The notes below the pieces were generated by a model. It was given only the letters and a program-made list of their open reading frames with translations, was not told the origin of the DNA and made no database searches. 64,000 bases of DNA from Escherichia phage P-GXEC-L2P5: sequence record PQ843332.1. The stretch is one strand, 5' to 3'. How positions within the stretch are numbered: the first letter of the stretch is position 1; every line of letters begins with the position of its first letter. Positions 1-32,421 of the stretch are shown piece after piece. Position numbers and translations under genes: made by a program.

Positions 1-66
1 TTTAAAGATATCAAGCTAATGGAGCGAATCGCGCTTGATGAAATGGCGCAACAAAACCCCGCATAA
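1..66 (+). CDS. tail assembly chaperone, C-terminal end of the frameshifted gpT-like extension (partial; 5' end outside window)
   Basis: Frame 1 reads FKDIKLMERIALDEMAQQNPA-stop; the same peptide ends the T-frame extension after the G-like chaperone at 49363-49432. Confidence 0.5.
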   Translation, partial: FKDIKLMERIALDEMAQQNPA

Positions 67-604
67 TGAAGCGGGACAAGCGGGACGTCCCGTTTTGTCC
101 CGCCCCTCAAAAACTGCATACTTATTTACTATTATTGCATAAACTAAAAGCGGGACAAGCGGGACGTCCCGATCTGGCACCCCTCTGAAAAGCGCATACC
201 TATTCAGTTTTACTGCATAAACCAAACGGGACAAAAAGCGGGACAAACAAGGGGCGGGACAAAGCGGGACAGCACCCCCGCCCCGCCAGTGCTGCCGCGG
301 GGTTTAGCCGATCGGGACAGGCGGGACAAAGCCCAGTCTTTCAGACTAGACGGGGGTCAATGGCCCCCCTCGCGCGGTTTTTAGCCGATCGGGACAGGCG
401 GGACAAAGCCCAGTCTTTCAGACTAGACGGGGGTCAATGGCCCCCCTCGTCTGAGACTGAATAAGGTTTGTTTTAAATTCGCTGATACAATGTTTCAGAC
501 TAGACGGGGGTCAATGGCCCCCCTCGTCTGAGACTGAATAAGGTTTGTTTTAAATTCGCTGATACAATGTCAACCGGCAACTGCATAAAAAAGGGGGCTG
601 CATA
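67..604. repeat. non-coding repeat module R1: GCGGGACA(A) arrays in direct and inverted orientation, GC-rich tract, repeated strong hairpin, TGCATAAA boxes
   Basis: At least 10 GCGGGACA-type 8-mers; near-palindrome GCGGGACAAGCGGGAC/GTCCCGTTTTGTCCCGC at 70-102; no plausible ORF; paralogous modules at 31353-31610 and 49433-49893. Confidence 0.7.
411..459 (+). terminator. strong stem-loop (cagtctttcagactagacggggg...cccccctcgtctgagactg), terminator-like; also at about 334-371 and 487-535 through tandem duplication
   Basis: Long GC-rich inverted repeat seen directly; no clean U-tract, so terminator function is inferred only. Confidence 0.35.
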
Positions 605-3401
605 ATGGCAGATCAAGCAGCAGGCATCACGCTAAAGGCGGATGTCGCACAAATCAGAACGGCGAATACTGTGCTTGATTCATTCGCACAGAAATCCGAG
701 AACACAGAAAACAAGGTTAAGAAATTAAACGACACACTCGGCAAATCCAAAAAGGTTACGAGTGACGCCGCGGGTGGAATGGAGAAGCTGGCGACTGAAT
801 CGCAGCGCGCCGCAGATGGCATGACGAAACAGGAGCGACTTGCCAACAGGTTAGGCATGTCGACCAAAAACCTGGGCTTTGCCTCGCGTAACGCCGCATT
901 CCAGTTACAGGATATCGCAGTTACGCTTGAGATGGGGATGCCAGTTCACCGCGTCATGCTTCAGCAGTTACCACAGCTTACCGGGGCGTTCGGTGGATTG
1001 GGTAACACGCTGCGTTATGTTGCGGGCTTCCTCGGTCCGGTAGGGATCGGCATTGCAGCACTAACGGCAACGTTAGGCGTAGGAGTGGCGGTTACGTCCC
1101 GTGCCGAAAACCAGGTCGCAGCGCTTAACAAGACGCTGGCGCTGTCGGGTAACATTTCCGGACTCACTGCAAACCAGATCCTGGTGCTATCCGAGAACGC
1201 CGAGCGCATGGGCGGGTCGTTCCGCAAGACGCGTGACACAATCCAGGCGCTGGCGGCGGCGGGTGTGAAAGCGGGTGGTGACTTCGGCGCACTGGCGACC
1301 GCAAGACGCGTGACACAATCCAGGCGCTGGCGGCGGCGGGTGTGAAAGCGGGTGGTGACTTCGGCGCACTGGGGAAGGTAGTGAATGACTTCGCGAAGGT
1401 GTCCAGCCAGCCGATCGAGGATGTGGTCGCGGCGGTGGCGAAGCTGTCAACCGACCCGGTAGGCGGCTTACGGGCATTGGCGGATAAGTATCACGTCGTA
1501 AACGAAGCGCAGATCCAGCAGGTGCAGTCACTAGTGACGGCTGGTCGCGAAACCGAAGCGGTGGCGCTGGCTAACAAAACAGCCGCGGCGTCGTTTACCA
1601 CTATGACCAACGATATTAAGTCCAACATGGGTACGCTTGAGCGGTCGATGAACGTCGTTACATCGGCAGCTAAATCTATGTGGGACGCCATCCTGGATGT
1701 GGGCCGCGCGCAGTCCTCGAATGAGTCAGAGATGAAAGCGCGTGAATCATTGCAGCGACTGACCACGGCTTACTATGCCGAGATGAAAGCGGTCAACGCT
1801 GCCGGTGGGGTGATGACCGAAGCGCAGAAAGCACGTATTAACATGCTTTATAGCGAAATGGTCGCCCAGGAGAAAGTAGTCGCGTCGCTCACCCTGCGCA
1901 ACCGTGCAGAGCGTGACAACGCCAACGCCGCGGAACAATCAGCAAAGGCGAACGAGGAGGCAAACCGCACTGCCCGCGACCGCGCCGCGTTTGAGAAGGA
2001 GTACGCAACCAACGCTAAGCGGCGCGCCGACGAGATCGCCCGCCTCAATTTGCTTAATAAGCGCGGCGTGATTGACGAGAAAGAGCTTGCCGAGGCGGTG
2101 AAGCAGGTAAACGAGCGTTACAAAGACCCCGCCCCGAAGAAGGCCGCCGCTGTTCGAGTCGATGCCGGGCTGAAAATGCTGGAAGTCGCGCGAAGCGAAC
2201 TGGCACAGCTTCGTGAGTCTGGAAAGCAGATCGAAGCCAACTCCTCGACGCAGACCCGAACGCAACGCGCTCAAGCGGCCCTAAACAAGCTGATCGCGGA
2301 TAATGAGCAGTTAATCGCAGCAAGCAAAGAAAGAGCACTAACGGCAGCAGAAAAGCAGCAGATGGTCGAATTCGGACGCGTGAAGGAAGTACGCGAGCAG
2401 ATCGTCGAAGAAGCCAAATTGCTGGACGCGAAAGAGAAGCAGGTCAAGGCGCACGCGCAGATCGACTCCTTCGTTAAGAACCAGAACGCCGAGCTAAAAG
2501 CCACCGCGGCGGGCTATGCGCTTTCCACTCGCGAAGCGGCTAACCTGCGCGAAGAATTGCAGCTAATTGACCGCCTTAAGCGGGTGGGCGCTAGTGATAC
2601 CGATATTGATCTGGCGGTGTCTAAACTGCGCGAAGTGCAGGAAGCACAGACCGGTGCTAACGCCTCACTATGGGATGGATTCAGCCGTGGGCTTAAGGAT
2701 AGCGTGGATGAAATGGGTAACGGCTATACGCAGATGACGTCACTCACAAAATTCACGTTCGGCGCTATGCAGGACACGATGAACGAGTTTTTCGAGACTG
2801 GCAAGCTGAACGCAAAGGATATGGTTAAGTCCATCCTGAGCGAATTAATCAAGCTGGCTACCTCGCAGGCGTTCAAGTCCATCGTTAGCGCTTTCGGTGG
2901 CGACGGCGGCAAAAACGGATTGTTCGGCGCTATCTTCTCGGGCCTCACCAAGAATGCGGACGGCGGAGCGTACGTGGCGACGGCGGCAAAAACGGATTGT
3001 TCGGCGCTATCTTCTCGGGCCTCACTAAGAATGCGGACGGCGGAGCTTACGCAGGGGGCAATCTCGCGGCCTATTCTGGGAAAGTGGTAAGCCAGCCTAC
3101 CTTTTTCAGTTATGGCGTCCAGGCGTTCGCTAAGGGCGCAGGATTGATGGGCGAGGCTGGTCCCGAGGCCATCATGCCGCTGAAGCGCGGGCCGGACGGG
3201 AAACTGGGCGTTGCCGCGTCTGGCGCAGGCGGTGGTATGGTCGTGACGACTAACGTTTACACGGGGACCGGTAAAACGGATACCAGTGTCAGCGGGCCGG
3301 ATCCCCGTACCGCGCAGGCGTTCGGCAAGCAAATCACCGAGGCGGTGAAGGCCGAGATCGTGAAGGCGACGAAACCGGGTGGTGTACTTTACAAACGATG
3401 A
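605..3401 (+). CDS. tail length tape measure protein (frame broken by tandem duplications near 1218-1372 and 2894-3051)
   Basis: ORFs 605-1345, 1342-3090 and 2997-3401 are contiguous; long coiled-coil Ala/Lys/Glu-rich middle; Gly-rich C-terminus; sits upstream of gpM/L/K/I/J-like genes. Confidence 0.75.
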
Positions 3402-4899: not shown

Positions 4900-5640
4900 A
4901 TGTTAACGAAGAAGGTTAAAAGCGATATCGCCGCACACGTCGCGGCATGTCTGCCGGAAGAAGCCTGCGGCCTGGTTGTCATGGTGGGCCGCAAACAAGT
5001 TTTTATCCCGTGCGTTAACGTATTCGAAGATCCTACCGGTGCGCGCTCGCGTAAGGACGCGTTTACAATCAGTGATACGGCCTGGATGGATGCTGAGGAT
5101 ATGGGCGATGTCGTTCGCGTAGTCCACTCACACCCAGGTCAGCGCGAGTTAACCCCGTCATTGGGTGACGTCAACGGCTGCAACGGCAGCGGCGTCGTCT
5201 GGACAATTACCAATGAGTATGGCGACTTTATCGAGATCGACCCGGAAGACCCGCCACTGGTGGGTCGCCGATTTGTTCTCGGAATTACGGATTGTTATGG
5301 CCTCGTTATGGACTGGCATAAAAAGCATGGCGTAAACCTGCCAGACTTCCGCGTACCGTACAACTGGTGGGAGACAGGCGAAAACCTGTATATGGACAAT
5401 TGGTATGGAGCGGGCTTCCGGGAGTGTGCGGAGAATACGCCAGGGGCGATGGTCATCATGCAGATTAGCGCGCCAGTGCCTAACCACGCCGGAATCTACC
5501 TTCCGGGCAACCAACTACTACACCATATCTACGGCAGCCTGTCGAGCGTGATCCCCTTCCGGGCAGGATTTTTCCGCGACAATGTGGTTAAATGGGTACG
5601 TCATAAAGACTTACCGTGGGATATCACAGAATGGCAATGA
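4900..5640 (+). CDS. tail assembly protein, lambda gpK-like (JAB/MPN + NlpC/P60 domains)
   Basis: Intact 246 aa ORF; HSHPGQRELTPSLGD (JAMM-like His motif) followed by Cys/His peptidase-like region; position after gpL-like gene. Confidence 0.8.
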   Translation: MLTKKVKSDIAAHVAACLPEEACGLVVMVGRKQVFIPCVNVFEDPTGARSRKDAFTISDTAWMDAEDMGDVVRVVHSHPGQRELTPSLGDVNGCNGSGVVWTITNEYGDFIEIDPEDPPLVGRRFVLGITDCYGLVMDWHKKHGVNLPDFRVPYNWWETGENLYMDNWYGAGFRECAENTPGAMVIMQISAPVPNHAGIYLPGNQLLHHIYGSLSSVIPFRAGFFRDNVVKWVRHKDLPWDITEWQ

Positions 5641-6248
5641 CCACATTTAAATTATACGGCGTCTTAGGGCGTCGTTTTGGTAAAGTGCACAAGCTGGATT
5701 GCTTCACCCCGGGCGAAGGTATCACAGGCCTATGCGTGAAGCTGCCTGGCTTACAGGACTTTCTAATGTCGGCCCACCTGGAAAATATTATGTTCAAGGT
5801 GCGCAAAGGCAATCACACAATGACCGGATACGACGAGTTAGGAGAGTTCCACGGCGACCGCGTAGTTACCATCGCACCGGTTATGACCGGCGCAAAACGC
5901 GGACTAGGCCAATTACTGGCGGGCGTAGCCATCGTGGTGGCGTCGTTCTACACCGGCGGGCTTGCTACTGCCGCTTTCGGAGCTTCCGCCGCGACCGCTG
6001 CCGCTATCGGTACGGCAACGTTTTCGTTCGGGATGTCGATGGCGCTGGGTGGCGTTATGCAATTGCTGTCACCGCAACCGAAAGGATTGCAGACACGGCA
6101 GGACGTGGATAACAAGGCGTCTTATGCGTTCGGCGGACCGGTAAACACGACCGCGCAAGGTACGGCACTTGGTGTATTATGGGGCGAGCGTGAGATCGGC
6201 GGCGCTATTATTTCCGCCGGAATCGTAACCGAGGACTTGAACGAATGA
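5631..6248 (+). CDS. tail assembly protein, lambda gpI-like
   Basis: ORF 5616-6248; N-terminal TFKLYGVLGRRFGK ubiquitin-like region, Gly/Ala-rich hydrophobic C-terminal half; overlaps gpK-like stop. Confidence 0.65.
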   Translation: MAMTTFKLYGVLGRRFGKVHKLDCFTPGEGITGLCVKLPGLQDFLMSAHLENIMFKVRKGNHTMTGYDELGEFHGDRVVTIAPVMTGAKRGLGQLLAGVAIVVASFYTGGLATAAFGASAATAAAIGTATFSFGMSMALGGVMQLLSPQPKGLQTRQDVDNKASYAFGGPVNTTAQGTALGVLWGEREIGGAIISAGIVTEDLNE

Positions 6249-6321
6249 CGATTATCTACGACGTCACAGGCCATAAAGGCGGCGGCGGCAAAGCCGGAAT
6301 CGTAACCGAGGACTTGAACGA

Positions 6322-9300
6322 ATGACGATTATCTACGACGTCACAGGCCATAAAGGCGGCGGCGGCAAACAGCACACCCCACAGGAGACGCCGGACAGCC
6401 TGCATTCGCTGGCTAAAATCCGCATCTTGCTCGCACTGGGCGAAGGTGAGTTCGAAGGCATTACCGACCCTAACGAATTACGGCAGCGCGTATACCTGGA
6501 CGGAACACCGATCCAGAACGCCGACCTGTCAGAAAACTTCCCCGGCGCGCGCGTGGAGTTCCGCCCAGGCACACAGCACCAGGACGTGATCCACGGATTT
6601 TCAGCGGTGGAAAGTGAGCAATCCGTAGGCGTAAAACTGGAAAACGGCACGCCGTGGGTGCGCCAGATTAACGACACCAGTCTTGACGCCGTGCGCATTC
6701 GAATCGGCATTCCGGCCCTGTACACCAACGAAGACAACGGCGACCTGGTGGGCGGGCGCATCGACTACAAAATCGTTGTGTATACGGACAACGCTGATCC
6801 GCGTGAGTTTACCTTCGCTGCCGTTGGTAAAACAATGTCGCTGTACGAGCGCGACCACCGCATCGAGTTACCGCCGAACGTGAATACCGGCTGGCGCGTG
6901 GAAGTTCACCGCACAACGGCAGATTCCACATCGGCGAAAGTGGTGAACGATATTCAGGTACAGTCCATCACTGAGATTATTGACGCCCGCCTGCGTTACC
7001 CGCTAACCGCGCTGTTGTTTGTGGAGTTCGACGCCAAAGCGTTCCAGAACATCCCGCGCGTGTCCATTAAGTGCAAAGGTCGCAAAGTTCTAATACCGAA
7101 CAACTACGACCCGATCAATCATACCTATGCCGGGTACTGGGACGGCACGTTTAAACGCGCATGGACGGATAACCCTGCGTGGCACTGGTACGATATTTGT
7201 ATTACTGAGCGCTTCGGCCTCGGTCGGTTAAACGCGCATGGACGGATAACCCTGCGTGGCACTGGTATGATATTTGTATTACTGAGCGCTTCGGCCTCGG
7301 TCGCCGGATCAAGCCGCAAATGCTAAACAGATATGCGCTCTACCAGATTGCGAAGCGCTGCGATCAACTGGTCAGCGACGGCAACGGCGGGCAGGAAATC
7401 CGATTTAAGAATGATATGTACATCCAGTCGCAGACCGACGCCTGGACCGTGCTTAAGGATTTAGCCGCCATCTTTGCCGGTATGACCTGGTGGGGCAACC
7501 AGATGTTGAATATTGTAAGCGATCAGCCGGTCGCAGCGGTATCGCACACTATCACCAACGCCTCGGTCATTGATGGTCGATTCGACTACGCGTCAGGGAG
7601 CCAGAAAACTCGGTATTCCACGTTCGCTGTAGCATACGGCAACCCGAAGAACCACTATGAAGATGCCATTGCTACGGGACAGCGTGTCGAACTGGTACGC
7701 CGCCATAAGATTAACCGTCTGGATATAACGGCGATCGGCTGTACGCGTGAGTCAGAAGCGCAACGCCGCGGGCACTGGGCGCTAATCTCCAACCAGCTTG
7801 ACCAGCAAGTTAGCTTTAAGGTTGGCATGGAGGGACTTTTCTTTATTCCGGGTAGTGTAGTCGCGATCGCCGATACAAACATTTCTGGCGGCTTCGAGAC
7901 ACGCGGCGGTCGCCTGTTGTCAGATCCTGGCACGCGGACTGTGCTGAACACAGACAGCGAAATCACGTTCCGCCCTGGGGATAAATTCCTGGTACGCACC
8001 GATAGCGGTAATGTGGAGACTCGCGAGATTGCCAGCGTCAACGGCAACAAGGTTACGCTAAAAACCGCACTGGACGCCGACCCGATTCCTGATCAGCCGT
8101 TTTGCGTCGATGGCAACGATATCCAGTTGCAGAAGTTCCGCATCACCGACCTGGAATATGACGACTCTACCAGCACTTTTTCAGTGCGCGGGATCGAATA
8201 CAACGATAGCAAATATGATGCCGTTGATAATGGCGCTCGCCTTGACCCAGGCATCTTTACGCAAGTTCCTGACGGCGTAATGAAGGGGCCGGAGTCCGTG
8301 ACCATTACCCCGTCGCAGATTTCATCGCAAGGCCAGCTAATCACCAACGTGGATATTGTGTTCCCGCCGGTGAAGGATGCCGTTGTTTATGAGATCCAGT
8401 GGCGACGTACCAGCTTGCAGAATATGGCGGTACAGTGGGGAAACGACTGGGTAAACATCCCCCGCACGGCATCGAACGGCGCGCACATCCCTAACGTGTT
8501 CTCCGGTAACTACCAAGCGCGCGTCCGCGCGATCGGTATGGGCGAGATTTCATCCCCGTGGGTGTCGTCCGCTATCACGCCGGTGGAAGGTCGTCTCGGC
8601 GGTCTTAACGCGCCTATCATCACCAACGCGATTTCGGGCCTTCACCAAATTTTGTGGAAGTGGAACCACAACAACGCCGCGACGGATATTTCGTACACCG
8701 AGCTTGAAGTTCGCAAGACGGGTGAAACGGAATGGAAATTCCTAACCAACGTCCCATACCCGGGGTCGGAGTATGCGCAAACGTCGCTGGAGTTCGGCAT
8801 CTATCAGCAGTTGCGCGCCCGTGTAGCGGATAAAATCGGCAACCTGTCGGACTGGTCGGCCCCGTTTGAAGGGCAGGTGAGCAGCAGTTGCGCGCCCGTG
8901 TCGCGGATAAAATCGGCAACCTGTCGGACTGGTCGGCCCCGTTTGAAGGGCAGGTGAGTGACAATGTTGACGAGTACATGAAGGGGCTGGACGACGAGTT
9001 CTTGACTTCTGAGGACGGTAAACGCTTCCAGGAAGCGATCGACACCATGCCGCAAGGCATTTATGAGGCTATGCTCACCGACGCACAGCAATTGTTTAAC
9101 GCCCGCGCCGAGTACAAGGGGATTTATGCAGAAATCTCGGTCGCGTATAACGTGGCGGCAGATGCCCACCAGGCGGTAGCGCAACTGGAAACGTTGATCG
9201 GTACTCGCCTTGACGATGCGGAAGCGGCAATCCACACGTTGCAGACCGCGCAAAGCACGCACGAGCAAGCGTTCGCCCAGTACCAACAAACTGTTGCCGC

Positions 9301-11122: not shown

Positions 11123-12901
11123 ATGGCAGCGGGTACGCTATCCGTAACGAACAATAGCAAGGCTGTAGTAGGGGTCGGCACAACGTTTACCGCGTTTAAA
11201 GCGGGCGACTTCTTAACGCTGGTGGTAGGACAAGTCCCATACACCGTGGCAATCGCGTCCATTGAAAGCGCAACCGCGCTCACGCTGGTACTGCCGTTCG
11301 ACGGCCCAACGGCAACCGGCCTTGCGTGGGATGGCGTTAAGCGCGATACCATGTCGCTGGCAACGATGGGCGTTACCGTACAGGCCCAAAAAGCATTGCG
11401 CTTGATGATTGCAGATGAAAACAACTGGCGTGCAATCTTCGGCGATGCTGAAGAAATCACAGTCACGCTCCCGAACGGGCAAGTTATGCAGGGTATGTCG
11501 TGGGGCTACCTGTCGTCTTTGCTGAAGGAAGTAGACCCCGTTGAGATGCGCAACCTGCAACAACAAGCCGCCGCATCGGAAGCAGCCGCGCAAGGATTCC
11601 GTAACGAGGCGGAAGGCTTCAAGAACGACGCCAACACCATCAAGACGCAGACCAGCCAACTTAAGGCAGATACGCAGGCTATCAAGGACCAAACGAATCA
11701 GATCAAGACTGACACTGGCGTTATTCGTGATGAAGCCAATACCGCGAAGGAGGACGCGCAATCTGCCCGCACTGCCGCGCAAGGATTTCGCAATGAGGCT
11801 GAACAATTCGCTAATAGTGTTAACCCGGAAAACCTACTTGCGAAGGCCAACAACTTAAGTGATGTTGCGGATGTGGCTGTGGCGCGCGAAAACATTGGCG
11901 TAGACCGCCTAACGCAAAACATAACCAGCGGCGAAACACAAATCAGGACTGCGGCGAAGAATAAATGGATCTTCGTTAAGGAAAATGGCGACTGGGGCGG
12001 GTGGGATAATGCCAACAATAAAGCCATGCCGCTGCCGATTGCATTCGGTGGTACGGGGCGCGGCGATAACGTCGCCGAGTTCCGCCAATTCAAATCAAAC
12101 GGCGACACCCAAGATGGGTTAATCATTACGCAGAACGGGTCTGGATTTGGTGGTGTATGCTGGGGGGATTCCGCCAATAAAGTACGCTGGCGCATGGGGA
12201 TTAACGACGCCGCGGGTAATTTTAAGTTGCACTCATATGACGCGTCGGGCGCGTACCGCGATACCTTTATGGAGATCTCTGGATCGGGGATAAGCGGCAT
12301 GGTGTGTCATCGAGATATCATGGTCCGCCCAACAGAGACAGTTCCAGTGTTGTCTTTCGTCCTAAACAACGGAAAAGCTACCGTCCCGGCTGGTAACGTC
12401 CGCACGATGTGGGATACGGTTAACATCAATAGTAATATAATCTATAAATATTTTGAGAAGGGAGACGGCACTGGCTTCACAGTCAACTGGCCCTCATCTG
12501 GTGGTGTTATTGCCCTCCAGGGTACATCAGGAAGGGACTTTAAGAAAGATATTACCGACGCGGACGTTACAGAAGCGGTTGCACGCATTGAACAAATGCG
12601 CATGGTGCGCTACGTGTATAAGGACGATGTGCAGGAGCGCGTCCGCTTCGGCATCATTGCCGAGGAAGCAGAAGAGATTGCGCCTCAATACATCAAACAC
12701 CGTGAGGAGACGTACGATGTGGAGGTGGACCCCGAGACTAACGCCATCGTCGGGGGTAAGACGCGCGACCGTCCGTCGGTAGACGTTAACCCTATCGTGA
12801 TGGACTTGATGGGGTGCGCACAATATGCGATCGCTGAGTGTAAACGCCTGGCGGCGGAAGTGGAGGATTTGAAAGCCGAGATCGCGGCGTTGAAGAAATA
12901 A
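11123..12901 (+). CDS. tail fibre protein with C-terminal intramolecular chaperone (peptidase S74-like) domain
   Basis: Intact 592 aa ORF; coiled repeat region; C-terminal ...RFGIIAEEAEEIAPQYIK...DLKAEIAALKK resembles the auto-cleaving chaperone domain of endosialidase and L-shaped tail fibres. Confidence 0.7.
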   Translation: MAAGTLSVTNNSKAVVGVGTTFTAFKAGDFLTLVVGQVPYTVAIASIESATALTLVLPFDGPTATGLAWDGVKRDTMSLATMGVTVQAQKALRLMIADENNWRAIFGDAEEITVTLPNGQVMQGMSWGYLSSLLKEVDPVEMRNLQQQAAASEAAAQGFRNEAEGFKNDANTIKTQTSQLKADTQAIKDQTNQIKTDTGVIRDEANTAKEDAQSARTAAQGFRNEAEQFANSVNPENLLAKANNLSDVADVAVARENIGVDRLTQNITSGETQIRTAAKNKWIFVKENGDWGGWDNANNKAMPLPIAFGGTGRGDNVAEFRQFKSNGDTQDGLIITQNGSGFGGVCWGDSANKVRWRMGINDAAGNFKLHSYDASGAYRDTFMEISGSGISGMVCHRDIMVRPTETVPVLSFVLNNGKATVPAGNVRTMWDTVNINSNIIYKYFEKGDGTGFTVNWPSSGGVIALQGTSGRDFKKDITDADVTEAVARIEQMRMVRYVYKDDVQERVRFGIIAEEAEEIAPQYIKHREETYDVEVDPETNAIVGGKTRDRPSVDVNPIVMDLMGCAQYAIAECKRLAAEVEDLKAEIAALKK

Positions 12902-12930: not shown

Positions 12931-13580
12931 GTTTGAGTTTTCCCAGTCCATTTTGCGCCGCACCAGATGGCTTTCGTAATATTCCTTGCCCTCAACTTCC
13001 ACTAAGGGCCAATCGTTAACAATCACGTACGGTTCCGCAATATCCTCAATCACGCCGTGCGCGCTTTGCGGCCCTAACGACACGCCCACCAGGATAACAC
13101 CGGCAACACGACGGGCAAGATACTCACGAGCGCAGCGCGCCTCTACCAGTCCGCGACGGATGCCGCTGGTGGCCTTAACTTCGTAGGTCCATACGGCATC
13201 GATCACATGCTCGCGGAAGTCGGGACCGGACTTCACCTTGCGCTTGCCGACCATGATGATATCGCCGCGACGGCATCGATCACATGCTCGCGGAAGTCGG
13301 GACCGGACTTCACCTTGCGCTTGCCGACCATGATGATATCGCCGCGGTCAATGGTATTGGCGCTAAACAGGCCGGTACGCATGAGCAAGCCTTGAGGAAT
13401 ACAACTGCGCCCTCCTGCCTGCCCTTCAAGATACATGCCTGCAAACATCTCGCCCAGCACACCGACCAGTCGGCTTTGCTTGCACGCGTCAGACTTTAAG
13501 CGCCACTGGTCAAACTCGATGCTTGCTATCATTGCCGCCAGGTGGAATTGTTTACCGGATATTTCATATTCGCCGTACAT
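12928..13580 (-). CDS. hypothetical protein, possible PD-(D/E)xK-type nuclease fold (frame broken by duplication near 13195-13345)
   Basis: ORFs 13233-13580 and 12928-13254 are contiguous; GDII...YEVK resembles D...(E)xK; homologue at 63627-64000. Confidence 0.3.
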
Positions 13581-15189: not shown

Positions 15190-15752
15190 TCAACGACTAA
15201 GATATTCAAGGAGTTCTCCTTCGCTCATTATTTCAATTTGTGCGCTGCCGGTGGGCGGCGCTTCGTCAAAGATTATCAATTGCTGGCACTTGTTATTGCT
15301 CGGCCCGTTTCAATTTGTGCGCTGCCGGTGGGCGGCGCTTCGTCAAAGATTATCAATTGCTGGCACTTGTTATTGCTCGGCCCGACTTCGCCGGTTACAG
15401 CATGTATGAATCGGATCCGCCAGTCCAGAAGAATTATCAGGTTTGCAGTCTTCCGGGCCAGCTTCGCCCACTTCGTCGACGTGTCCTGATTCAGTAGCAT
15501 GACGGTCCGGCGTCCGTGCGCCGCGCACTCGACCCACGGCAGCGGATCGGAATACGGCGGGTTGCACCACTTCCACCCTTTCAACTCTGACCAGTCCGCA
15601 TCGAGCGCGCTGTGCTCTGCCGTGAAGTAACGCGGTAGCAGGTGGTTGGCATCGCTCGCCGCCATGTCATAACGGAATCTGTACTTCCGGCGCAGCGGTT
15701 TAAATAAAGCTGGCGGCGTGCGCCAGCTATCTTTTTGCTCACTCTTCTGCAT
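15190..15752 (-). CDS. DNA N6-adenine methyltransferase, phage Dam-like (frame broken by duplication near 15231-15382; start duplicated 15752/15829)
   Basis: WRTPPALF N-terminus and NPPY catalytic motif typical of phage Dam family. Confidence 0.65.
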
Positions 15753-19329: not shown

Positions 19330-19355
19330 CGTCATGTCTCCCAAAAATGGCGGGA

Positions 19356-19372
19356 CAAGCCCGCCGTATTAA
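19356..19372 (-). terminator. hairpin ggcgggacaagcccgcc followed by T-run on minus strand (duplicated at 19425-19441)
   Basis: Perfect 6-bp GC stem; lies just upstream of helicase RBS. Confidence 0.35.
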
Positions 19373-19449
19373 TTATTTTTGCTCTGCGCCGGTAATGTTC
19401 TTTCATCGTCATGTCTCCCAAAAATGGCGGGACAAGCCCGCCGTATTAA

Positions 19450-20541: not shown

Positions 20542-20607
20542 ATACCCCCCGAAAAAGAAAACGCCAGACAATATTGCCTGACGTTTCCGCTAAAAGCAAC
20601 ATTTCCG

Positions 20608-23600
20608 CTACTTGCGGTATCGATACATACAATCGCCCTCTGCGGCAAGTGGGAAGCCTTTCGCCCAAATCGGCAGGTCGCACATCAGCGCGCAAAGTTC
20701 CTCGGTCGTGTAGTCGTCAGTGTCCGGCACTTCGGTGATCAATTCATCGTGCACTGACAGGACGATTTCATAGCCCGCAGCTTCAACGCCAGGCATGGAC
20801 CACGCGAGAATATCGCGACACAACGCTTGCACGATGTTCTCCGTAAGTTTGCCGCCGTAGGTGTACTGGAATCCCCACTGGCGCGTCGTCTGATTCTCGC
20901 CCTGATATTTGATGCGGGTACTGGTGCGCTTCTTGCCGGTGTCTTCGTCGATCTCGGTCGTGACAGACAGTGCGATGCCGGGGTAGCTCATGATGCGCCC
21001 CGACGGCAACTCAATTTTTAACCACCACCCCGCGGCGTTCGGGTCGTCGCGCTCCTCGTCAAAGGTTGGGTCGTGCTTCGCCTTCGTACGGACAATCTTG
21101 AGCGCTTTTCTACCGTCCGGGCGAACGTTCGCACCAGCCCAGTATGCTTTGCCCGGATTGCGGATTGCACACAACACCGCGTCCTCAAGCTCGGCCCAAA
21201 AGGCTACCGTCTTCGGGTGAGCCTCACGCCACATACGTTTGATCGCGTCACAAGTAAGCCATACGTTTTTCGGCAGTATGTAAGTCGGGCGCTCGTCCTT
21301 CTTGCCCGGCTTCGGTGGGCGTTTCGCTTCGTTAATGCGGGCGTACTCATAACCGCGCTTCGCCGCCGCCCAAATGTGATCCGGGAACGTGCCTTTCATC
21401 ACGTCCGCCATAGTGTAAAGGTCGAGTCCCAGGTTTTTAGCGAACTGCAAGAACGCCGCGACGCCGCCACCATAGCCCAGGCCAAGCTCGCAGTTATGCG
21501 CCACCAGAAAACCAGACTTAGACGCAATAAGGAACCGGTTTCCGTCTTCCACATCAATCAGGTCGTAAACCGGCTCGCAATAGGTTAACTTCCCGTTCCA
21601 GTTCAGCAATGCGGGTAAGGGCTTCATCGTACTTTCTCTGAAGCTCGGGCACGCTGCGCCGGTTACGGCAGTTTTCCGAACGGCTGACAAACCGAAGGTT
21701 TCCAGGCTCATAGTTGCCGTCTGTATCGATCCGGTCCATTTCGAAGTCGGGATTATCCCAGCCGTCCAGCGTTTGAACGTAGAGAAGAAACGACCTTTTA
21801 TCTCTCTTCCATTCGTCACATACGGCAATCCCACGACTGCCGTAGTTTTTATACCCTTTGGCGCGGGGGTTTGTCGTTCGTGATATTGCCGCTGACAGCC
21901 GGTTGAGCAGCCGCGTTCTGTGCGCATCGTCTGGCATTGCGTCATCGTAGCAAAAATACTGTTTACGATACCGCTTTGTCGCTTCAATTGCGCAGAGGTT
22001 GCATTGGGATGTTTTACCCCTTCGGACGTTGTCATACCCGACGCGTCCTGGCATCGCTCCGCAATCACATTGGGCCAGCAGTTGTCTGTGCCCCTGTCGT
22101 TTTGGTAATTCGCGCAGGATAACCAGGCGTCCATACCTCTCGCCAGGGCGCGGGCCATCGTGCACCTGTCTGAAACGAGTTGCCTTGCCTCCTTCCATGA
22201 ATGCGTCAAGATTTTGTGGTCTTCTGTCATCAAGACCCCGTCCACGTCTATCACTGGTTTCCACCCCATAAGGTGCGCGCCTTGTGTACTCACCCATTTT
22301 TCGCCGTTCCATACTTTATCCGTTGATGTTACGGCCATAATATCCTTGAACCCGCCATTGGTCAATACTTGGGTATGGCGGTGCAAGCAAGCCTTACCGA
22401 TCTGGCGTAAGTCCTTGCGGTTAGCTTTAATGTAATCCGGGTCCAGGCCGAACATTTTACCGGCAGTCTCGCAATAAATATCGCGACCGGCCTTAAACAC
22501 CATTAACGCGGTTTTCTCGCCAGCGACCCAGGCAAGGCCGCGCCCTTCCACGTTGGAGTAGTCCGCGACGACAAACTTCTTGCCCTTAGCCGGAATGATG
22601 CACCCGCGAACGGTCGAGGCGGTTAGCTTCGATATGTCATACGCCCAGTGCGCTGTCCCGCGTAACAGGGAGTTGATGCCGTTGGTGAGCATGTGCGACC
22701 GAACCCAAAACGAGACGTCGCTTTCACCCTCGCGGCGTTTAATCTTCCCTTCGTGGTCGTCGCTGTACTCGCCACGCGCCAGGTTTTGAGGTTGAAAGCC
22801 TTTACCGGCCCAGCGTAGCGTGCGCTTTGCCCCACCATACTGAAGACACCCACGGCGGCGACCATCTGCGGATAAGCCGTTAACTAGCGGATTGTACTTA
22901 GTCGATGCCGTTGATGACGCTCCGAGGCGCATTTCTATAAGCGCTTTGCCTTCGTCGGGGAAGTCCGGGTCTTCAAGCAGGTCGTTAAGTGTGGATTTCT
23001 GCGCGTTGTGGATTGTGAACGCCGGGGCGATATCACGCAGGATTGGCAGGAAGTCATTGCCTGTCAGTTTACCACCAAATCGCTCCCAGGCTTCTTCCTT
23101 CAATTCTTCCTTATGCGCCTGCACCGCTTTGATCGCGGCGTTCGCCAGGTCAACGTCGACGTAGAAGCCGCGGTCGTTAATCAACTGGTCGATGAGCAGG
23201 ATTTCATCTTCCTTAGGCGAGTTTCCCCAGTCCGGTATGCGCCAGTAGACTTCACGCATTGCGATAATATCCAGCGCGGCATAGCGCAGAAATTTGGCCC
23301 ATTCTTCCGGGTGAGTCTCGCGAGTGTAGCGGCGGATTTTGTAGGTCTTAGGGGTAGGCTTACAGAATCGGTTAATCAGCGCCTTGCCTGCCTTATCCTT
23401 CGCGTGCTCTGCGTCAACGCCCAGAACCTGGCACTGCATATCGAGGCTACCGGGCAGCGCGTGGCGAAAGGCCATAATCATAGTGTCTTCGATCTGGCTT
23501 ACCGGCAGGTCAATACCCCACTTCTCGCGGATAACCAGGCGGTCAAACAGGAGGCCGTTAGCCATCACTATTTTAGCCTTCTTGCGGGATACCCGGCGGA

Positions 23601-23796
23601 GCGCCTTGCGCAGTTCACGCGGCATTGTGGGGGATTCAGTGGCATCCCATGTCTGCACGCGGCCCTCGTCTATGGCGTAGGTGCAAATCATAATCTCTGT
23701 GGTTGGGTGCTCCGCGTAGGCGTACGCCCCAACTTTCTTCAGGTCCACCCCGCTAAATGTCTCGGTGTCGAGAAACAGGCGTTCGAAGTCTTTCAT
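20608..23796 (-). CDS. family A DNA polymerase with 3'-5' exonuclease domain, interrupted by an in-frame intein
   Basis: Intact 1062 aa ORF; exo motif FLDTETFSG; motif A VVADYSNVEGRG; motif B split as RQIGKA/intein/CELGLGYGG; motif C VHDEL. Confidence 0.85.
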   Translation of the reverse strand: MKDFERLFLDTETFSGVDLKKVGAYAYAEHPTTEIMICTYAIDEGRVQTWDATESPTMPRELRKALRRVSRKKAKIVMANGLLFDRLVIREKWGIDLPVSQIEDTMIMAFRHALPGSLDMQCQVLGVDAEHAKDKAGKALINRFCKPTPKTYKIRRYTRETHPEEWAKFLRYAALDIIAMREVYWRIPDWGNSPKEDEILLIDQLINDRGFYVDVDLANAAIKAVQAHKEELKEEAWERFGGKLTGNDFLPILRDIAPAFTIHNAQKSTLNDLLEDPDFPDEGKALIEMRLGASSTASTKYNPLVNGLSADGRRRGCLQYGGAKRTLRWAGKGFQPQNLARGEYSDDHEGKIKRREGESDVSFWVRSHMLTNGINSLLRGTAHWAYDISKLTASTVRGCIIPAKGKKFVVADYSNVEGRGLAWVAGEKTALMVFKAGRDIYCETAGKMFGLDPDYIKANRKDLRQIGKACLHRHTQVLTNGGFKDIMAVTSTDKVWNGEKWVSTQGAHLMGWKPVIDVDGVLMTEDHKILTHSWKEARQLVSDRCTMARALARGMDAWLSCANYQNDRGTDNCWPNVIAERCQDASGMTTSEGVKHPNATSAQLKRQSGIVNSIFATMTQCQTMRTERGCSTGCQRQYHERQTPAPKGIKTTAVVGLPYVTNGREIKGRFFSTFKRWTAGIIPTSKWTGSIQTATMSLETFGLSAVRKTAVTGAACPSFRESTMKPLPALLNWNGKLTYCEPVYDLIDVEDGNRFLIASKSGFLVAHNCELGLGYGGGVAAFLQFAKNLGLDLYTMADVMKGTFPDHIWAAAKRGYEYARINEAKRPPKPGKKDERPTYILPKNVWLTCDAIKRMWREAHPKTVAFWAELEDAVLCAIRNPGKAYWAGANVRPDGRKALKIVRTKAKHDPTFDEERDDPNAAGWWLKIELPSGRIMSYPGIALSVTTEIDEDTGKKRTSTRIKYQGENQTTRQWGFQYTYGGKLTENIVQALCRDILAWSMPGVEAAGYEIVLSVHDELITEVPDTDDYTTEELCALMCDLPIWAKGFPLAAEGDCMYRYRK
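21493..22389 (-). mobile_element. intein (299 codons) inserted in polymerase motif B
   Basis: Block A CLHRHTQVLTNGG, block B DGVLMTEDHKILT, block F/G VYDLIDVEDGNRFLIASKSGFLVAHN followed by +1 Cys; removal restores RQIGKACELGLGYGG. Confidence 0.7.
21554..22198 (-). CDS. HNH homing endonuclease encoded in an alternate frame inside the intein
   Basis: ORF 21554-22312 in a different frame from the polymerase; GERYGRLVIL...QCDCG...GKTSQCNLC and GYKNYGSRGIAVCDEW...DRIDTDGNYEPGNLRFVSRSENCRNRR match the common phage HNH family; ATG at 22198. Confidence 0.6.
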   Translation of the reverse strand: MEGGKATRFRQVHDGPRPGERYGRLVILRELPKRQGHRQLLAQCDCGAMPGRVGYDNVRRGKTSQCNLCAIEATKRYRKQYFCYDDAMPDDAHRTRLLNRLSAAISRTTNPRAKGYKNYGSRGIAVCDEWKRDKRSFLLYVQTLDGWDNPDFEMDRIDTDGNYEPGNLRFVSRSENCRNRRSVPELQRKYDEALTRIAELEREVNLLRAGLRPD

Positions 23797-23963
23797 TGCT
23801 TTATCCTCACTACGGCGTCAGCGCTGCCGATCATGGAGAAGATGCCGTCGGACAGGGCGATCTCTTCGCCGTTGTTGCGAATCTCGGCAACTGTGAAATA
23901 TTCCCCCAGTAGCTTGGACCATACTTGCATTCCGACTTTTACTTCGCTGGCTTTAATACGCAT
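23793..23963 (-). CDS. hypothetical small protein (56 aa)
   Basis: ORF MRIKASEVKVGMQVW...; stop overlaps polymerase start (ATGA). Confidence 0.3.
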   Translation of the reverse strand: MRIKASEVKVGMQVWSKLLGEYFTVAEIRNNGEEIALSDGIFSMIGSADAVVRIKQ

Positions 23964-24175: not shown

Positions 24176-24850
24176 TTAACGGCGGCGACGTTTACGTGGC
24201 GCTTCGTCTTCGTCGTCGTCTTCGTCATCGTCATCACGACGTTTTGACTTTTTGGACTTACGCGGGCTTTCATCTTCGTCATCGTCGCCCAGGTCTTCGT
24301 CGGAACATGAAGACCCGCCACCGCCGAAGGCTTCGCCGTCATCACGGAAGCGCATACCCAGCAGACCACAGCCTAAGCCTTTGCCGTTGGTATTGTTCCA
24401 GGCCCAAATATCTAAGGAAACGTTGCAATAGCAACCGGAATAGATTTCCTTCCCTTCGATTTCGTCGCCGTCGATGGTCAGACCCTGCTCCGTCTGCTTC
24501 TCGCCTTCGGAAGTCTGGATGATCGGCTGTTTGAACGATTTGGCGTTGATGTACAACATGCCTTCGAATTCTTCGGTTACTTCGTCGCGCTCGTCACCGT
24601 CGCGAACTGCGCATTCCTTAGAATCCTGGGCGTAGTGGCGGTCCATCCACTTATCGGCATTCTTCTCGGATTTCAGCTTGTCGGTGAGCACTGCGCGCGC
24701 TGCCGCTTCCACTTTGTCCACCTGCGGATCTTCTTTATCAAGAAGAATCACGGCGCGGTATGCCGGTTTTTGTCCATCCTGTTTAGGGGTATCACGTTCC
24801 CAAATTTTAAGGAAACATACACGCACATTTTTCAGGTTGACTTTAGCCAT
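24176..24850 (-). CDS. single-stranded DNA-binding protein candidate, DUF2815-like with acidic C-terminal tail
   Basis: MAKVNLKNVRVCFLKIWE...IYSGCYCNVSLDIWAWN...GKGLGCGLLGMRFRDDGEAFGG followed by D/E-rich tail; GAGGAA RBS; C-terminus affected by the triplicated unit. Confidence 0.5.
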   Translation of the reverse strand: MAKVNLKNVRVCFLKIWERDTPKQDGQKPAYRAVILLDKEDPQVDKVEAAARAVLTDKLKSEKNADKWMDRHYAQDSKECAVRDGDERDEVTEEFEGMLYINAKSFKQPIIQTSEGEKQTEQGLTIDGDEIEGKEIYSGCYCNVSLDIWAWNNTNGKGLGCGLLGMRFRDDGEAFGGGGSSCSDEDLGDDDEDESPRKSKKSKRRDDDDEDDDEDEAPRKRRRR

Positions 24851-25017
24851 TTTCCAATTCCTCATTTTCACATGTATCGGGGTTATTGGAAGCCACCCCG
24901 TTCGGCTTGGTTGCTAATTTACTCCATTTTCCAATTCCTCATTTTCACATGTATCGGGGTTATTGGAAGCCACCCCGTTCGGCTTGGTTGCTAATTTACT
25001 TGGTTGCGCCTGAGCGG

Positions 25018-28516: not shown

Positions 28517-28846
28517 ATGAATATCAACGACGCAATCGAAATGCTAACGAAGACTGTCTGCAGTGAGACTAGCCGGTCCTGGGCGTATACCGATGCCGTG
28601 GGGGCGGTGCTATTTGAAATCGAACGTCTGCGACTTACCGAAAAAGAATTGCGCGCCAGGCTGGAATTACTCAACGGTACGGCAGCCAGCAAGCTGCAAA
28701 AGCACAATGAAGAAATGGAAGAATACAAAAAACAGGTTATCCGTCTACGTGAGGAAGGTAAATCCTGGGCTATGATCGCCGAGCTAACCGGAATCAACCA
28801 GAGCACCGTGCGCTCCTGGGTACGCAATAATAAAACTTCGAAGTAA
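28517..28846 (+). CDS. HTH DNA-binding protein, putative transcriptional regulator
   Basis: 109 aa; C-terminal GKSWAMIAELTGINQSTVRSWVRNN helix-turn-helix; coiled-coil middle. Confidence 0.5.
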   Translation: MNINDAIEMLTKTVCSETSRSWAYTDAVGAVLFEIERLRLTEKELRARLELLNGTAASKLQKHNEEMEEYKKQVIRLREEGKSWAMIAELTGINQSTVRSWVRNNKTSK

Positions 28847-31352: not shown

Positions 31353-31610
31353 ATCCTATTTTGAGTGTTTTTAGCTGGTCGCATTGGTTGCCGTGCAGTA
31401 TAAATATAGTGAATAGTTATGCAATAAAACTGCATAAAGTAAGCGGGACAAAAAGCGGGACAAACTTGGGGCGGGACAAAGCGGGACAGCACCCCCGTCC
31501 CGCCCCGGATGACGCGGCCTGGAGAGGAGCGGGACAGGCGGGACAACTCCCAGTCTTTCAGACTAGACGGGGGTCAGCGGCCCCCCTCGTCTGAGACTGC
31601 ATAAAATCCG
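31353..31610. repeat. non-coding repeat module R2, paralogue of R1
   Basis: aagcgggacaaaaagcgggacaaacttggggcgggacaaagcgggacagcacccccgtcccgcc is nearly identical to R1 226-290; same hairpin at about 31553-31607. Confidence 0.7.
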
Positions 31611-31753
31611 GGATTGCAAAATACACGGCAGCACATTGGAAATCGCGGTCGTCGATGAACTGGGCAACCAATGCGAGTTGCAGAATGTGGTGTGAAAAAT
31701 GCAGTTTGCAGTCACAGCTGATAGCGATCAACTTTTTCATGCGCATGATTAAT

Positions 31754-31794
31754 ATTGGTTGCATTCATGCCAGCACCCTGCTAGATTGGTTGCA
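31754..31794 (+). promoter_or_regulatory. two copies of ATTGGTTGCA upstream of gene 31816
   Basis: ATTGGTTGCA at 31754-31763 and AGATTGGTTGCACACCAACA at 31783-31802; identical extended 17-mer upstream of minus-strand gene start 43131. Confidence 0.45.
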
Positions 31795-31815
31795 CACCAA
31801 CATGAGGGCTGAACA

Positions 31816-32142
31816 ATGAAAGCGATTATCTGGAATTACGCAATGGCTATGGCGAAGGCACAAGAAGCGGCGGAGTTCGCCGGGGAGGGGGCGGAAGCAG
31901 TAGAGAGACTATCGGCAGCGTGGTCCGTTGTTCGCGTCACGCAGCAGGCCATCGCCTGTATGCTTGAGCGCCGCTTCGACACGATGGCGGAGATCCAGCC
32001 GTTGGCGAACGCTATCCAGGACTACGCGCTTGCATTTGCCCGTGAACGCCTGGCGTATCGCTTCGGGATCGGAGAGACGGCAGTGACAAACGTTGCCCGG
32101 ATTAAAGCCCAGCGTGAGCTATTCGCCCAGCTTGCGAAATAA
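31816..32142 (+). CDS. hypothetical protein (early region)
   Basis: 108 aa intact ORF directly downstream of motif pair. Confidence 0.4.
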   Translation: MKAIIWNYAMAMAKAQEAAEFAGEGAEAVERLSAAWSVVRVTQQAIACMLERRFDTMAEIQPLANAIQDYALAFARERLAYRFGIGETAVTNVARIKAQRELFAQLAK

Positions 32143-32151
32143 GAGGCCAAA

Positions 32152-32421
32152 ATGACCCGTAGACGCGCAAAACAGCTTTCGTGGCATATCCCCCTGCATT
32201 GCATACGAATATGGGCTAAGAATGCGAATGCGGGGGACTCTGTGTACTGGTGCTATCGCGACGACGTTAAGCCGTTGACGCAGACTCGCTACTTGCACCA
32301 GTTCGCCGCGCAACATGATTTCTATGTGCGGACCTCCTTGCAACCAATGGGGATCCGTATTACATTACGCCGGAAGCCCGCAGTCGAGCGGGTAGGCAAA
32401 CACTGGAGACTGAGCAAATGA
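32152..32421 (+). CDS. hypothetical protein
   Basis: 89 aa intact ORF, tightly spaced. Confidence 0.35.
   Translation: MTRRRAKQLSWHIPLHCIRIWAKNANAGDSVYWCYRDDVKPLTQTRYLHQFAAQHDFYVRTSLQPMGIRITLRRKPAVERVGKHWRLSK

Follow-up and report, generated by a model that had tools for sequence, protein, structure and literature searches.

The non-coding gap that separates the tape measure gene of Escherichia phage P-GXEC-L2P5 from the preceding tail assembly chaperone gene was analyzed in a 64,000-nucleotide stretch of DNA (sequence record PQ843332.1, referred to throughout as the window). The gap, at positions 67-604 and designated region A, is densely packed with direct and inverted copies of the hexamer CGGGAC. 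Comparison of sequences suggests, with a probability of approximately 0.6, that region A is a second, paralogous copy of an iteron-type replication origin module, the primary copy of which (region B) lies directly after the stop codon of the gene for a primase-helicase homologous to gp48 of Sodalis phage SO-1. Region B would be the cognate origin of this primase-helicase, as judged from its position and from analogy with known systems. Binding and melting of region A by gp48, together with origin activity of that region, are likewise predicted by analogy. Region A would then act as a second origin or as a cis-acting replication enhancer, located approximately 16 kb downstream of region B and inside the tail operon. 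Replication-origin iterons were one of several options in an original prediction made for this gap, and that option is supported by the position of region B, by arrays that follow primase-helicase genes throughout the family, and by covariation of the iteron with the C-terminal domain of the helicase.

Density and conservation of the repeats in regions A and B

The density of repeats in the gap is real and far beyond chance. After removal of two assembly duplications, described below, the gap contains 13 copies of CGGGAC in 384 bp (15 in the raw 538 bp), 9 of CGGGACA (11 raw), and 7 of the octamer GCGGGACA (8 raw). The expected number of CGGGAC in the de-duplicated region is 0.24, with a maximum of 4 in 5000 simulations of a first-order Markov model. 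The claim of at least ten repeat copies, made in the original prediction, therefore stands for CGGGAC(A) and fails for the full octamer. Throughout the window GCGGGACA occurs 27 times versus 3.3 expected, a count reached by no shuffle, and in SO-1 it occurs 16 times versus 2.1 expected, with 14 of these copies confined to two short regions. Clusters of CGGGAC are present in the 45-kb SO-1 genome only in region A (13 copies; 11219-11474) and region B (7 copies; 40285-40384). Five of the six SO-1 copies of TGCATAAA are also located in these two regions, all on the + strand. Region A was found in every one of the 158 matching Dhillonvirus records, so that both the enrichment over shuffled sequence and the conservation across related phages have been borne out. 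Columns belonging to hexamers are more often invariant than the remainder, both in region A (77% versus 55%, n = 14) and in region B (81% versus 46%, n = 15), which points to selection on the hexamers themselves.

These counts depend on how the window was assembled. Its first 3 kb match SO-1 (GQ502199; genus Dhillonvirus, HK578-like siphoviruses) at 98.2% identity by BLAST, and 157 further Dhillonvirus records match the same 3 kb at 80-95%. Self-comparison revealed at least 35 exact tandem duplications over the 64 kb, each with a period of 77 (for example 1222-1375, 6216-6369, 13193-13346, 15231-15384, and 24847-25000). In BLAST comparison with SO-1, the window resolves into approximately 90 collinear segments, neighbors overlapping by about 77 nt on SO-1. 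The shared length of duplications and overlaps identifies an assembler artefact at k = 77. The window represents about 1.4 turns of the Dhillonvirus genome of approximately 45 kb. Identity to SO-1 is 97-100% over the first ~24 kb and 84-94% later, the terminase-to-tail region starts at ~36.7 kb, and from ~48.9 kb the region of 1-13.3 kb is traversed again in a second strain variant. The window is thus a chimeric path through a de Bruijn graph (k = 77) of a strain mixture, in which unitig overlaps were left untrimmed. Two of the duplications lie inside the gap (296-372 = 373-449, with 2 mismatches; 416-492 = 493-569, exact) and account for 154 of its 538 bases. A third, 1222-1298 = 1299-1375, splits the tape measure gene into two open reading frames (ORFs; 605-1345 and 1342-3090), and the primase-helicase gene is likewise broken by 77-nt duplications. 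Once the two internal copies are removed, the distance between the chaperone stop (64-66) and the tape measure start (605) is 384 bp, identical to the length of region A in SO-1 (11214-11597). A repeat-rich gap ahead of the tape measure gene had been predicted correctly, while its size of about 540 bp had been inflated by the duplications. Uncollapsed k-mer overlaps can produce spurious repeats, hairpins, and frameshifts, as the window exemplifies, and any such feature read from it needs to be checked against the 77-nt duplications.

Region B of SO-1 extends over 40178-40657, directly after gp48, which is annotated as 'replicative helicase/primase'. The SO-1 record already annotates both regions, noting direct, inverted, and palindromic repeats and their mutual similarity, and mentioning a possible function. 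That annotation concerns the same DNA and was given without a link to the primase-helicase family, a cross-lineage comparison, or a test. A core of approximately 175 bp, defined from 31 A- or B-type modules (29 IMG/VR loci and SO-1), is common to regions A and B, with the same order of elements and similar spacing. It starts with a TGCATAAA box, followed by four direct CGGGAC copies (spacing 12, 15-16, and 10 nt) and an inverted GTCCCG within a GC-rich tract. About 25 variable nt lead to two further direct CGGGAC copies and CAGTCTTTCAGACT, then to a G-run/C-run hairpin with a variable loop. The core ends with (A/C)ATAA and, about 45 nt further, a CGGCA(G/A)C box. Identity is 0.91 among A copies, 0.91 among B copies, and 0.85 between A and B, implying that the duplication is old, predates the radiation of the genus, and has been retained in both copies. 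Concerted evolution of the two regions was considered and set aside, the difference between within-genome (0.859) and between-genome (0.848) identity being too small to build on. The iterons of region B begin within about 100 nt of the gp48 stop, and region A is the distal copy, away from that gene.

Several observations were made in passing. A lone GCGGGACA outside both regions, at SO-1 29131, falls between the homologs of gp34 and gp35, which are separated by a short gap, and could be either chance or a single binding site; in the window this single site is doubled by the artefact (19350-19357 and 19427-19434). The possibility that region A encodes a small protein was rejected, the ATG at 66-68 being missing from the second region A of the window (49432). 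A separate motif, ATTGGTTGC, gives 28 matches in SO-1 at no more than one mismatch versus 12.4 expected. Most of its exact copies fall within intergenic gaps or next to them, in many cases as pairs 11-17 bp apart (SO-1 5618/5632, 24750/24761, 26425/26442, 29372/29384, 34552/34568, 37373, 40189-40635, and 43627/43650; window ~31370-31800), and five flank region B. From its sequence context it looks like a promoter- or operator-associated site, as for TTGCAT-17-TATATT at SO-1 40599-40627. A mini-ORF of 16 codons, preceded by a strong Shine-Dalgarno sequence (GAGGAG), is also present in region B, after the hairpin and ahead of the next gene (SO-1 40540-40590, MRFAVAADSDQLFHARD; window ~31698-31748), and is conserved at the DNA level.

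Arrays beside the primase-helicase family and the candidate binder

The association of such arrays with gp48-like genes extends well beyond the genus. A motif-first scan of IMG/VR with GCGGGACAAAGCGGGAC returned about 20 loci with dense CGGGAC arrays, on unrelated contigs with GC contents of 42-69%. When flanking ORFs were clustered, gp48 homologs formed the one family present in the flanks of all 15 groups (14 non-Dhillonvirus groups and SO-1). The 3' end of the homolog adjoins the array in most groups, and is 0.8 and 3 kb away in two. A triple-hexamer scan provided 26 further loci, in which the array mostly starts between -150 and +50 nt from the stop of the homolog, with one at -338. Collagen-like Gly-X-Y coding repeats (CGGGACCAG) obtained in the latter scan were discarded as false positives. 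As a control, 80 loci were chosen by protein similarity alone, and 460 nt around the stop codon were examined in the 74 that could be assessed. The most frequent 6-mer around the stop is present in 3-19 copies, with at least 7 in 64 loci, and only a handful lack a clear repeat. CGGGAC is the top hexamer in 34 of the 74. The others use CGGACA, GGGGACA, GGAGACA, CGTGACA, CGTAACA, CGCAACA, CCGACA, CCGCACA, ACCGCA, and others, most of which fit CG-NN-ACA. By comparison, 2 kb of coding sequence upstream in these loci contain 0-5 copies of CGGGAC. The arrays usually hold a perfect palindrome consisting of an iteron, a G/C-run, a TATA-like center, a G/C-run, and an inverted iteron, and a best stem of at least 9 bp occurs in 40% of downstream intervals versus 4% of 262 control intervals. 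The complete arrangement can be observed in a cultured phage, Rhizobium phage 16-3, where p101 is followed by 13 CGTGAC(A) iterons, direct and inverted, with AT-rich stretches and an iteron-bracketed hairpin.

Closer relatives display the same frame with different repeats. Klebsiella phage VLCpiS11a and Salmonella phage VSiP, both Guernseyvirinae, encode primase-helicases 43-49% identical to gp48, share the early-gene synteny, and carry a homologous non-coding module right after the helicase gene. Two boxes are retained, gtgaatagttatgcaa in VSiP and aCGGCAGC in both phages. The iteron itself has been replaced by TTGCGAGT in VLCpiS11a (10 matches versus 1.4 expected) and by GGGGGAGA in VSiP (8 versus 0.56). 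Lineage-specific repeats within a conserved frame beside a replication gene are a hallmark of iterons. In VLCpiS11a the repeats form two clusters, 5037-5286 and 35685-35913, the second of which is located in the late region, between head-morphogenesis and spanin genes. In the Guernseyvirinae relatives Kagunavirus (Golestan) and Jerseyvirus (Jersey), the helicase gene is not followed by a gap, and these loci hence offered no comparison.

Members of the family are only 14-20% identical to gp48 overall, and the parts in common are the AAA_25 core and a C-terminal domain of approximately 90 residues. The N-terminal primase modules vary, with Prim-Pol in locus L112, a zinc ribbon and Toprim in L043, and no Pfam match in gp48. 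The family is large and so far uncharacterised, its members having an RSF1010-RepA-like core joined to various N-terminal domains (PrimPol, Toprim, or others). A sequence search of the PDB with gp48 returned nothing significant, the best match being RSF1010 RepA at E = 0.53. Structurally, the helicase core, a RecA-fold core of helicase superfamily 4 (SF4), is closest to RSF1010 RepA. A homolog search with the C-terminal gp48 fragment of the window returned nothing, the full-length SO-1 protein being needed. An AlphaFold model of a 97% identical homolog, built from a 30-sequence alignment (mean predicted local distance difference test score, pLDDT, 74), displays a confident N-terminal alpha/beta domain, a Cys/His segment, the RecA-like core, and a C-terminal unit of helix-helix-helix-strand-strand. 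Folded alone from the window sequence, the C-terminal domain reached a pLDDT of 54. Its Foldseek matches are weak (E at or above 0.17) and mostly winged-helix proteins, many of them DNA-binding (Fur, the KAT6A winged helix, AhrC, ArsR, MarR, SAMD1, and Cdc6). On these models, a winged helix is plausible for the C-terminal domain of gp48.

Covariation is a stronger argument than the fold for assigning a role in iteron reading to this domain. In 48 family members, C-terminal identity was compared at matched helicase-core identity for pairs with the same or a different iteron. At a core identity of at least 0.85, the C-terminal identity is 0.81 for the same iteron and 0.37 for a different one. 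The corresponding values are 0.65 and 0.41 at 0.70-0.85, 0.37 and 0.26 at 0.60-0.70, and 0.31 and 0.23 at 0.50-0.60. The pattern is also apparent for SO-1 gp48 itself. Its C-terminal domain is 59% identical to that of P0010, which shares the CGGGAC iteron (core 76%), compared with 36% for VLCpiS11a (core 69%) and 29% for VSiP (core 64%), both of which have a different iteron. In the original prediction, the small helix-turn-helix (HTH) protein encoded just upstream of the helicase gene (28517-28846; the gp47 homolog) was put forward as a binder. Clustering of flanking ORFs in the 15 groups found no gp47 homolog accompanying the arrays elsewhere. The most likely iteron binder is considered to be gp48 rather than gp47, whose HTH family does not travel with the arrays outside the clade.

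A number of points weigh against region A as a second origin read by gp48. The winged-helix assignment is weak (pLDDT 54-83, Foldseek E of 0.17 or worse), and the isolated N- and C-terminal domains of gp48 have no Pfam match. Pairs in the covariation comparison are not phylogenetically independent, and the result is correlative only. The C-terminal domain of the SO-1 clade differs from the KKxAFxR type of most CGGGAC-associated homologs despite the same iteron, which calls for convergence or another determinant. Within the Dhillonvirus clade it is possible that gp47 is the binder. VSiP has a single cluster, and a second copy is not general in the gp48 family. CGGGAC arrays are also found in other settings, namely beside an Sf6-type small terminase, beside a P4-like D5 helicase, and inside putative initiator ORFs. 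Cumulative GC/AT skew (maximum 23.5 kb, minimum ~37 kb) tracks the direction of transcription only and is uninformative on regions A and B. Finally, for any Dhillonvirus, the searched literature yielded no map of replication initiation, no binding assay, and no deletion phenotype.

Those other settings differ in their details. In five IMG/VR loci (L115, L126, L134, L141, and L151) CGGGACA arrays are located within the gene for a protein of approximately 290-350 amino acids with an HTH-like N-terminal half. The arrangement resembles lambda ori within gene O, and Pfam gives no confident family for the protein. In L109 (6117-6327), two-orientation CGGGACA pairs surround an AT-rich center downstream of a P4-alpha-like D5_N/DUF5906/Pox_D5 helicase, a gene-then-iterons layout in a different helicase superfamily.

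Anatomy of region A and alternative explanations

The features of region A and of the related parts of the window are listed in the table below. In comparison with the shared core, region A has two extra upstream units of approximately 79 bp, a diverged tandem pair spanning 69-234 (TRF period 79, 81% matches). The first unit contains the palindromic iteron quartet and the second a three-hexamer set with a degenerate outer copy, an AT-rich stretch following each. The two palindromic sets flank the AT-rich stretches 104-149 and 172-226, the former of which is a candidate DNA-unwinding stretch between iteron sets. A comparable layout occurs in phage 16-3 and in metagenomic relatives. The spacing of the four direct iterons is alike in regions A and B, the third interval being 15-16 nt, while the spacer sequence varies. 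The GC-rich tract is the counterpart of the inverted iteron GTCCCGCCCC of region B and is degenerate in region A. The hairpin has a DNA fold energy of -15.9 kcal/mol (z = -2.4), with a conserved G/C-run stem and a variable loop. Among the elements specified in the original prediction, three are confirmed: direct and inverted repeats forming a palindrome (at 71-103), a GC-rich tract (at 272-294), and TGCATAAA boxes (at 136-143, 214-221, and 582-589). The large hairpin also exists, at 411-459, once rather than three times, the partial copies at 334-372 and 493-536 being artefacts.

Features of region A and related parts of the window, with strand and supporting evidence
Position	Strand	Feature	Evidence
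1-66	+	Tail assembly chaperone gene, 3' end (SO-1 gp16 homolog, DUF1799); TAA stop at 64-66	Pfam PF08809 for SO-1 gp16; SO-1 annotation
71-103	.	Palindromic iteron quartet, two CGGGAC then two GTCCCG (GCGGGACAAGCGGGAC followed by GTCCCGTTTTGTCCCGC)	Sequence; kept across 14 Dhillonvirus region A sequences
104-149	+	AT-rich spacer with TGCATAAA box at 136-143	Sequence; TGCATAAA distribution in SO-1
150-171	.	Second iteron set (GCGGGACAAGCGGGAC followed by GTCCCG), beginning the second ~79-bp unit	Repeats
214-221	+	TGCATAAA box directly upstream of four direct iterons; begins the ~175-bp core common with region B	A/B comparison
227-270	+	Four direct CGGGAC at 227, 239, 255, and 265 (start-to-start 12, 16, 10)	A/B comparison, conservation
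272-294	.	GC-rich tract CACCCCCGCCCCGCC with CAGCAC...GTGCTG	Comparison of regions A and B
373-449	.	Assembly artefact, second copy of 77-nt unitig overlap, not phage genome	Repeats, SO-1 mapping
390-405	+	Direct iteron pair CGGGACAGGCGGGACA, truly single; appearance at 313-328 due to duplication	Sequence, A/B comparison
411-459	.	Hairpin/palindrome CAGTCTTTCAGACTAGACGGGGG-TCAATGG-CCCCCCTCGTCTGAGACTG	Fold, loop variants, family-wide equivalents
493-569	.	Assembly artefact, second copy of 77-nt unitig overlap	Repeats, self-comparison
560-568	+	TGATACAAT, extended -10-like element, invariant in 14 region A sequences	Sequence and conservation
575-589	+	CGGCAAC box, then TGCATAAA box (582-589)	Comparison of modules
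605-3090	+	Tape measure protein gene	ORFs, SO-1 match
28517-28846	+	Small HTH protein (SO-1 gp47 homolog; HTH_23/sigma-70 region 4-like), just upstream of primase-helicase; alternative candidate binder	Pfam, mapping
28857-31352	+	Primase-helicase gene (SO-1 gp48 homolog), AAA_25/RSF1010-RepA-like helicase core, C-terminal winged-helix-like domain; proposed iteron binder	Mapping, Pfam, model
31353-31800	+	Region B, directly after primase-helicase stop; iterons 31444-31545, hairpin ~31549-31599, flanked by ATTGGTTGC boxes	SO-1 mapping
49432-49815	+	Second pass through region A, different Dhillonvirus strain	9 GCGGGACA; own 77-nt duplication ~49730-49883

The element TGATACAAT is located approximately 35 nt before the ribosome-binding site of the tape measure gene and, from its sequence and conservation, is probably a promoter from which the tape measure gene and the distal tail genes would be transcribed. 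It was not called by the consensus promoter scan, which requires a -35 element. Consensus scans provided no convincing promoter or terminator, with no + strand terminator in the region and no T-run after the hairpin. Each of the five modules examined, from three lineages with different iterons, has a CGGCA(G/A)C box some 40-90 nt beyond the hairpin (window 575-581 and ~31623-31630; L033 ~4985 and ~35675; L034 ~37404). This suggests a conserved element for conserved machinery, such as a priming or start site.

The proposal that the gap is a transcriptional control hub deserves attention, although it is considered unlikely. The hexamers would be operator or activator sites for a regulator such as gp47, the hairpin would be a terminator or attenuator, and the modules would gate late transcription at two points of a long rightward unit. 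Such a role would be compatible with the co-orientation of both modules with transcription and the same-strand genes that follow each, with the invariant TGATACAAT, with TGCATAAA boxes lying solely on the + strand within regions A and B, and with the similarity of gp47 to sigma-70 region 4/HTH_23. In relatives, moreover, the HTH family upstream of the helicase gene (HTH_23 in Dhillonvirus, Cro/CI type in Guernseyvirinae) changes along with the iteron. However, the arrays track the primase-helicase gene across phyla regardless of the genes downstream, gp47 homologs do not recur with them, and the iteron covaries with the C-terminal domain of the helicase, neither the linkage nor the covariation being explained by a hub. 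The hairpin, moreover, is not accompanied by a canonical + strand terminator. What survives of the hub is its 3' promoter part, a probable promoter for the tape measure gene, which fits equally with region A as a copy of the origin module.

Another reading is that transcription from the TGCATAAA region to the hairpin yields a structured non-coding RNA, or that the repeats act, as RNA or DNA, as a decoy sequestering a host or phage protein. Conservation of the stem with a varying loop and the fold z-score of -2.4 could be read in this way, and GGA-containing repeats loosely resemble protein-sponge RNA motifs. Nevertheless, a scan of the whole SO-1 genome gave no Rfam match in regions A or B at E <= 1, and neither promoter nor terminator consensus was found for such a transcript. 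Iterons in both orientations forming perfect palindromes are a signature of duplex-DNA recognition, and hairpins bracketed by inverted iterons are family-wide. The RNA product that had been suggested as an option therefore has no positive evidence behind it and is judged very unlikely. Even less credence is given to a packaging or genome-end site (pac/cos) for the small terminase. The Dhillonvirus terminase genes (SO-1 55-2012) are distant from both modules, by approximately 11 kb for region A and approximately 5 kb for region B. According to published PhageTerm analyses, phage EE09 has a 5' cos ATCTTAAGGG and BF9 packages its DNA by the headful mechanism. Neither result was linked to A or B, and the EE09 cos is absent from both regions. 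The partition or packaging option of the original prediction is not supported for P-GXEC-L2P5. Two IMG/VR loci do carry opposed CGGGACG arrays around an AT-rich center right after an Sf6-type small terminase gene (L097, 6512-6748; L118, 2937-3172), and these, on sequence, may be pac sites using a similar hexamer. A few Dhillonvirus records also start or stop in region A or close to it (about 150 bp at most), namely CHD5UKE2 (NC_073059.1), EcoIv6a_Kente (OX460974.1), BEK2-2 (MN158213.1), and PNS1 (MK138527.1). Record starts near repeats are typical assembler output, and assemblers probably break at the repeats here.

The view that the repeats are purely an assembly artefact, with no biological feature behind them, would draw on the 154 duplicated bases and on the chimeric walk of about 1.4 turns. 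Its probability is close to nil, since the de-duplicated 384 bp have a match, conserved in its hexamers, in 158 phage genomes that were sequenced independently. This view is refuted for the core and is true only of 373-449 and 493-569.

In the SO-1 record, the DNA polymerase gene is additionally annotated as containing a 'type I self-splicing intron' (SO-1 30312-33500, gp38/gp39; window ~20600-23800). The whole-genome Rfam scan of SO-1 gave no group I intron match at E <= 1.

Proposed mechanism, known systems and significance

The mechanism proposed for the origin module is drawn by analogy with the Rep protein of Staphylococcus aureus pathogenicity islands (SaPIs) and with the alpha protein of P4. 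The CGGGAC(A) hexamers, direct and inverted alike, would be bound by the C-terminal domains of gp48, and this binding would distort or melt the adjacent AT-rich stretches and the G/C-run palindrome. Subsequently, the helicase would load itself, and the primase domain of gp48 would begin synthesis. In region A, the 3' end probably supplies the promoter (TGATACAAT) by which transcription of the tape measure gene would be restored.

The elements of this mechanism have precedents. In SaPIs, 6-12 penta- or hexanucleotide iterons directly follow rep and are recognised by the C-terminal winged-helix domain of Rep, which serves as both initiator and replicative helicase and is primase-fused in SaPI5; the ori has an AT-rich region and opposed iterons, protein and iteron being paired by lineage (PMC9371898). 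The module studied here resembles the SaPI Pri-Rep/ori system in its proposed initiator-helicase, the gene-then-iterons order, AT-rich DNA, opposed orientations, and lineage-specific pairing, binding being a prediction in the present case. The two differ in that SaPI Reps are SF3 or MCM-like ATPases, whereas gp48 has a RecA-fold SF4 core, and in that the SaPI ori is a single site, whereas Dhillonviruses have two modules 16 kb apart. The Dhillonvirus module, unlike that of SaPIs, also contains a conserved G/C-run palindrome, TGCATAAA boxes, and a CGGCAGC box.

Two distant sites are familiar from other replicons. The alpha protein of P4 joins a primase to a D5/SF3-type helicase and ends in a DNA-binding domain; the octamer iterons of P4, TGTTCACC, are direct and inverted. 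The ori and crr of P4 are separate cis sites 4.5 kb apart with the same iterons, and the requirement for the second site has been demonstrated. The likeness to the Dhillonvirus arrangement therefore covers the primase-helicase, iterons in two orientations, and two distant cis sites sharing them; unlike region A, crr is not in a structural operon, and for Dhillonvirus a second-site requirement is a conjecture. In SPP1, oriL and oriR carry the same initiator-binding repeats, one in the replication gene cluster and the other in a non-coding segment of the late region, so that here too one of two distant regions is on the replication side and one on the late side. However, G38P of SPP1 is a separate replisome organiser rather than a helicase, and its repeats and architecture are unrelated. 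The oriV of RSF1010 (IncQ) contains iterons together with GC-rich and AT-rich segments, and a dedicated primase uses its hairpin-forming single-strand initiation sites. It differs in that its 20-mer iterons are bound by a separate RepC, with helicase and primase as separate polypeptides.

Extended to the whole family, the proposal is more tentative and is given slightly less than even odds. Primase-helicases of the gp48 family would be self-loading initiators whose origin, a short repeat, usually in many copies and often CG-NN-ACA, together with an iteron-bracketed palindrome, follows the stop codon, a rapidly evolving C-terminal domain setting specificity. The late structural operon of Dhillonviruses would have received a copy of this origin, as would, independently, that of VLCpiS11a-like phages. 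The outcome would be a replicon with two origins, or with an origin and an enhancer, in which an origin lies between the genes for the tail chaperone and the tape measure.

Part of this picture was already known. The depositors of SO-1 had noticed the repeats, and iteron origins are already known to occur beside genes for initiator-helicases. Searches on SO-1, Dhillonvirus, SECphi18, HK578, phage 16-3, and 'CGGGACA' found no description of these origins, nor of any Dhillonvirus origin of replication, in the literature covered. What appears new is the assignment of the repeats to an RSF1010-RepA-like primase-helicase family, a family-wide rule with a partly readable iteron pattern, and the second module in the tail operon.

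Dhillonviruses are common coliphages, represented in the BASEL collection, and SECphi18 has been used in studies of defence systems. Two predicted origin-like sites and a predicted reader protein are directly testable. If true, the rule that the gene is followed by its cognate iterons would allow origins and their specificity to be predicted in hundreds of uncultured phages, and the matched protein-DNA pairs would offer a natural set for studying the evolution of recognition. Furthermore, with an origin placed between the genes for the G/GT chaperone and the tape measure, one may ask how the same DNA would serve both replication and late transcription.

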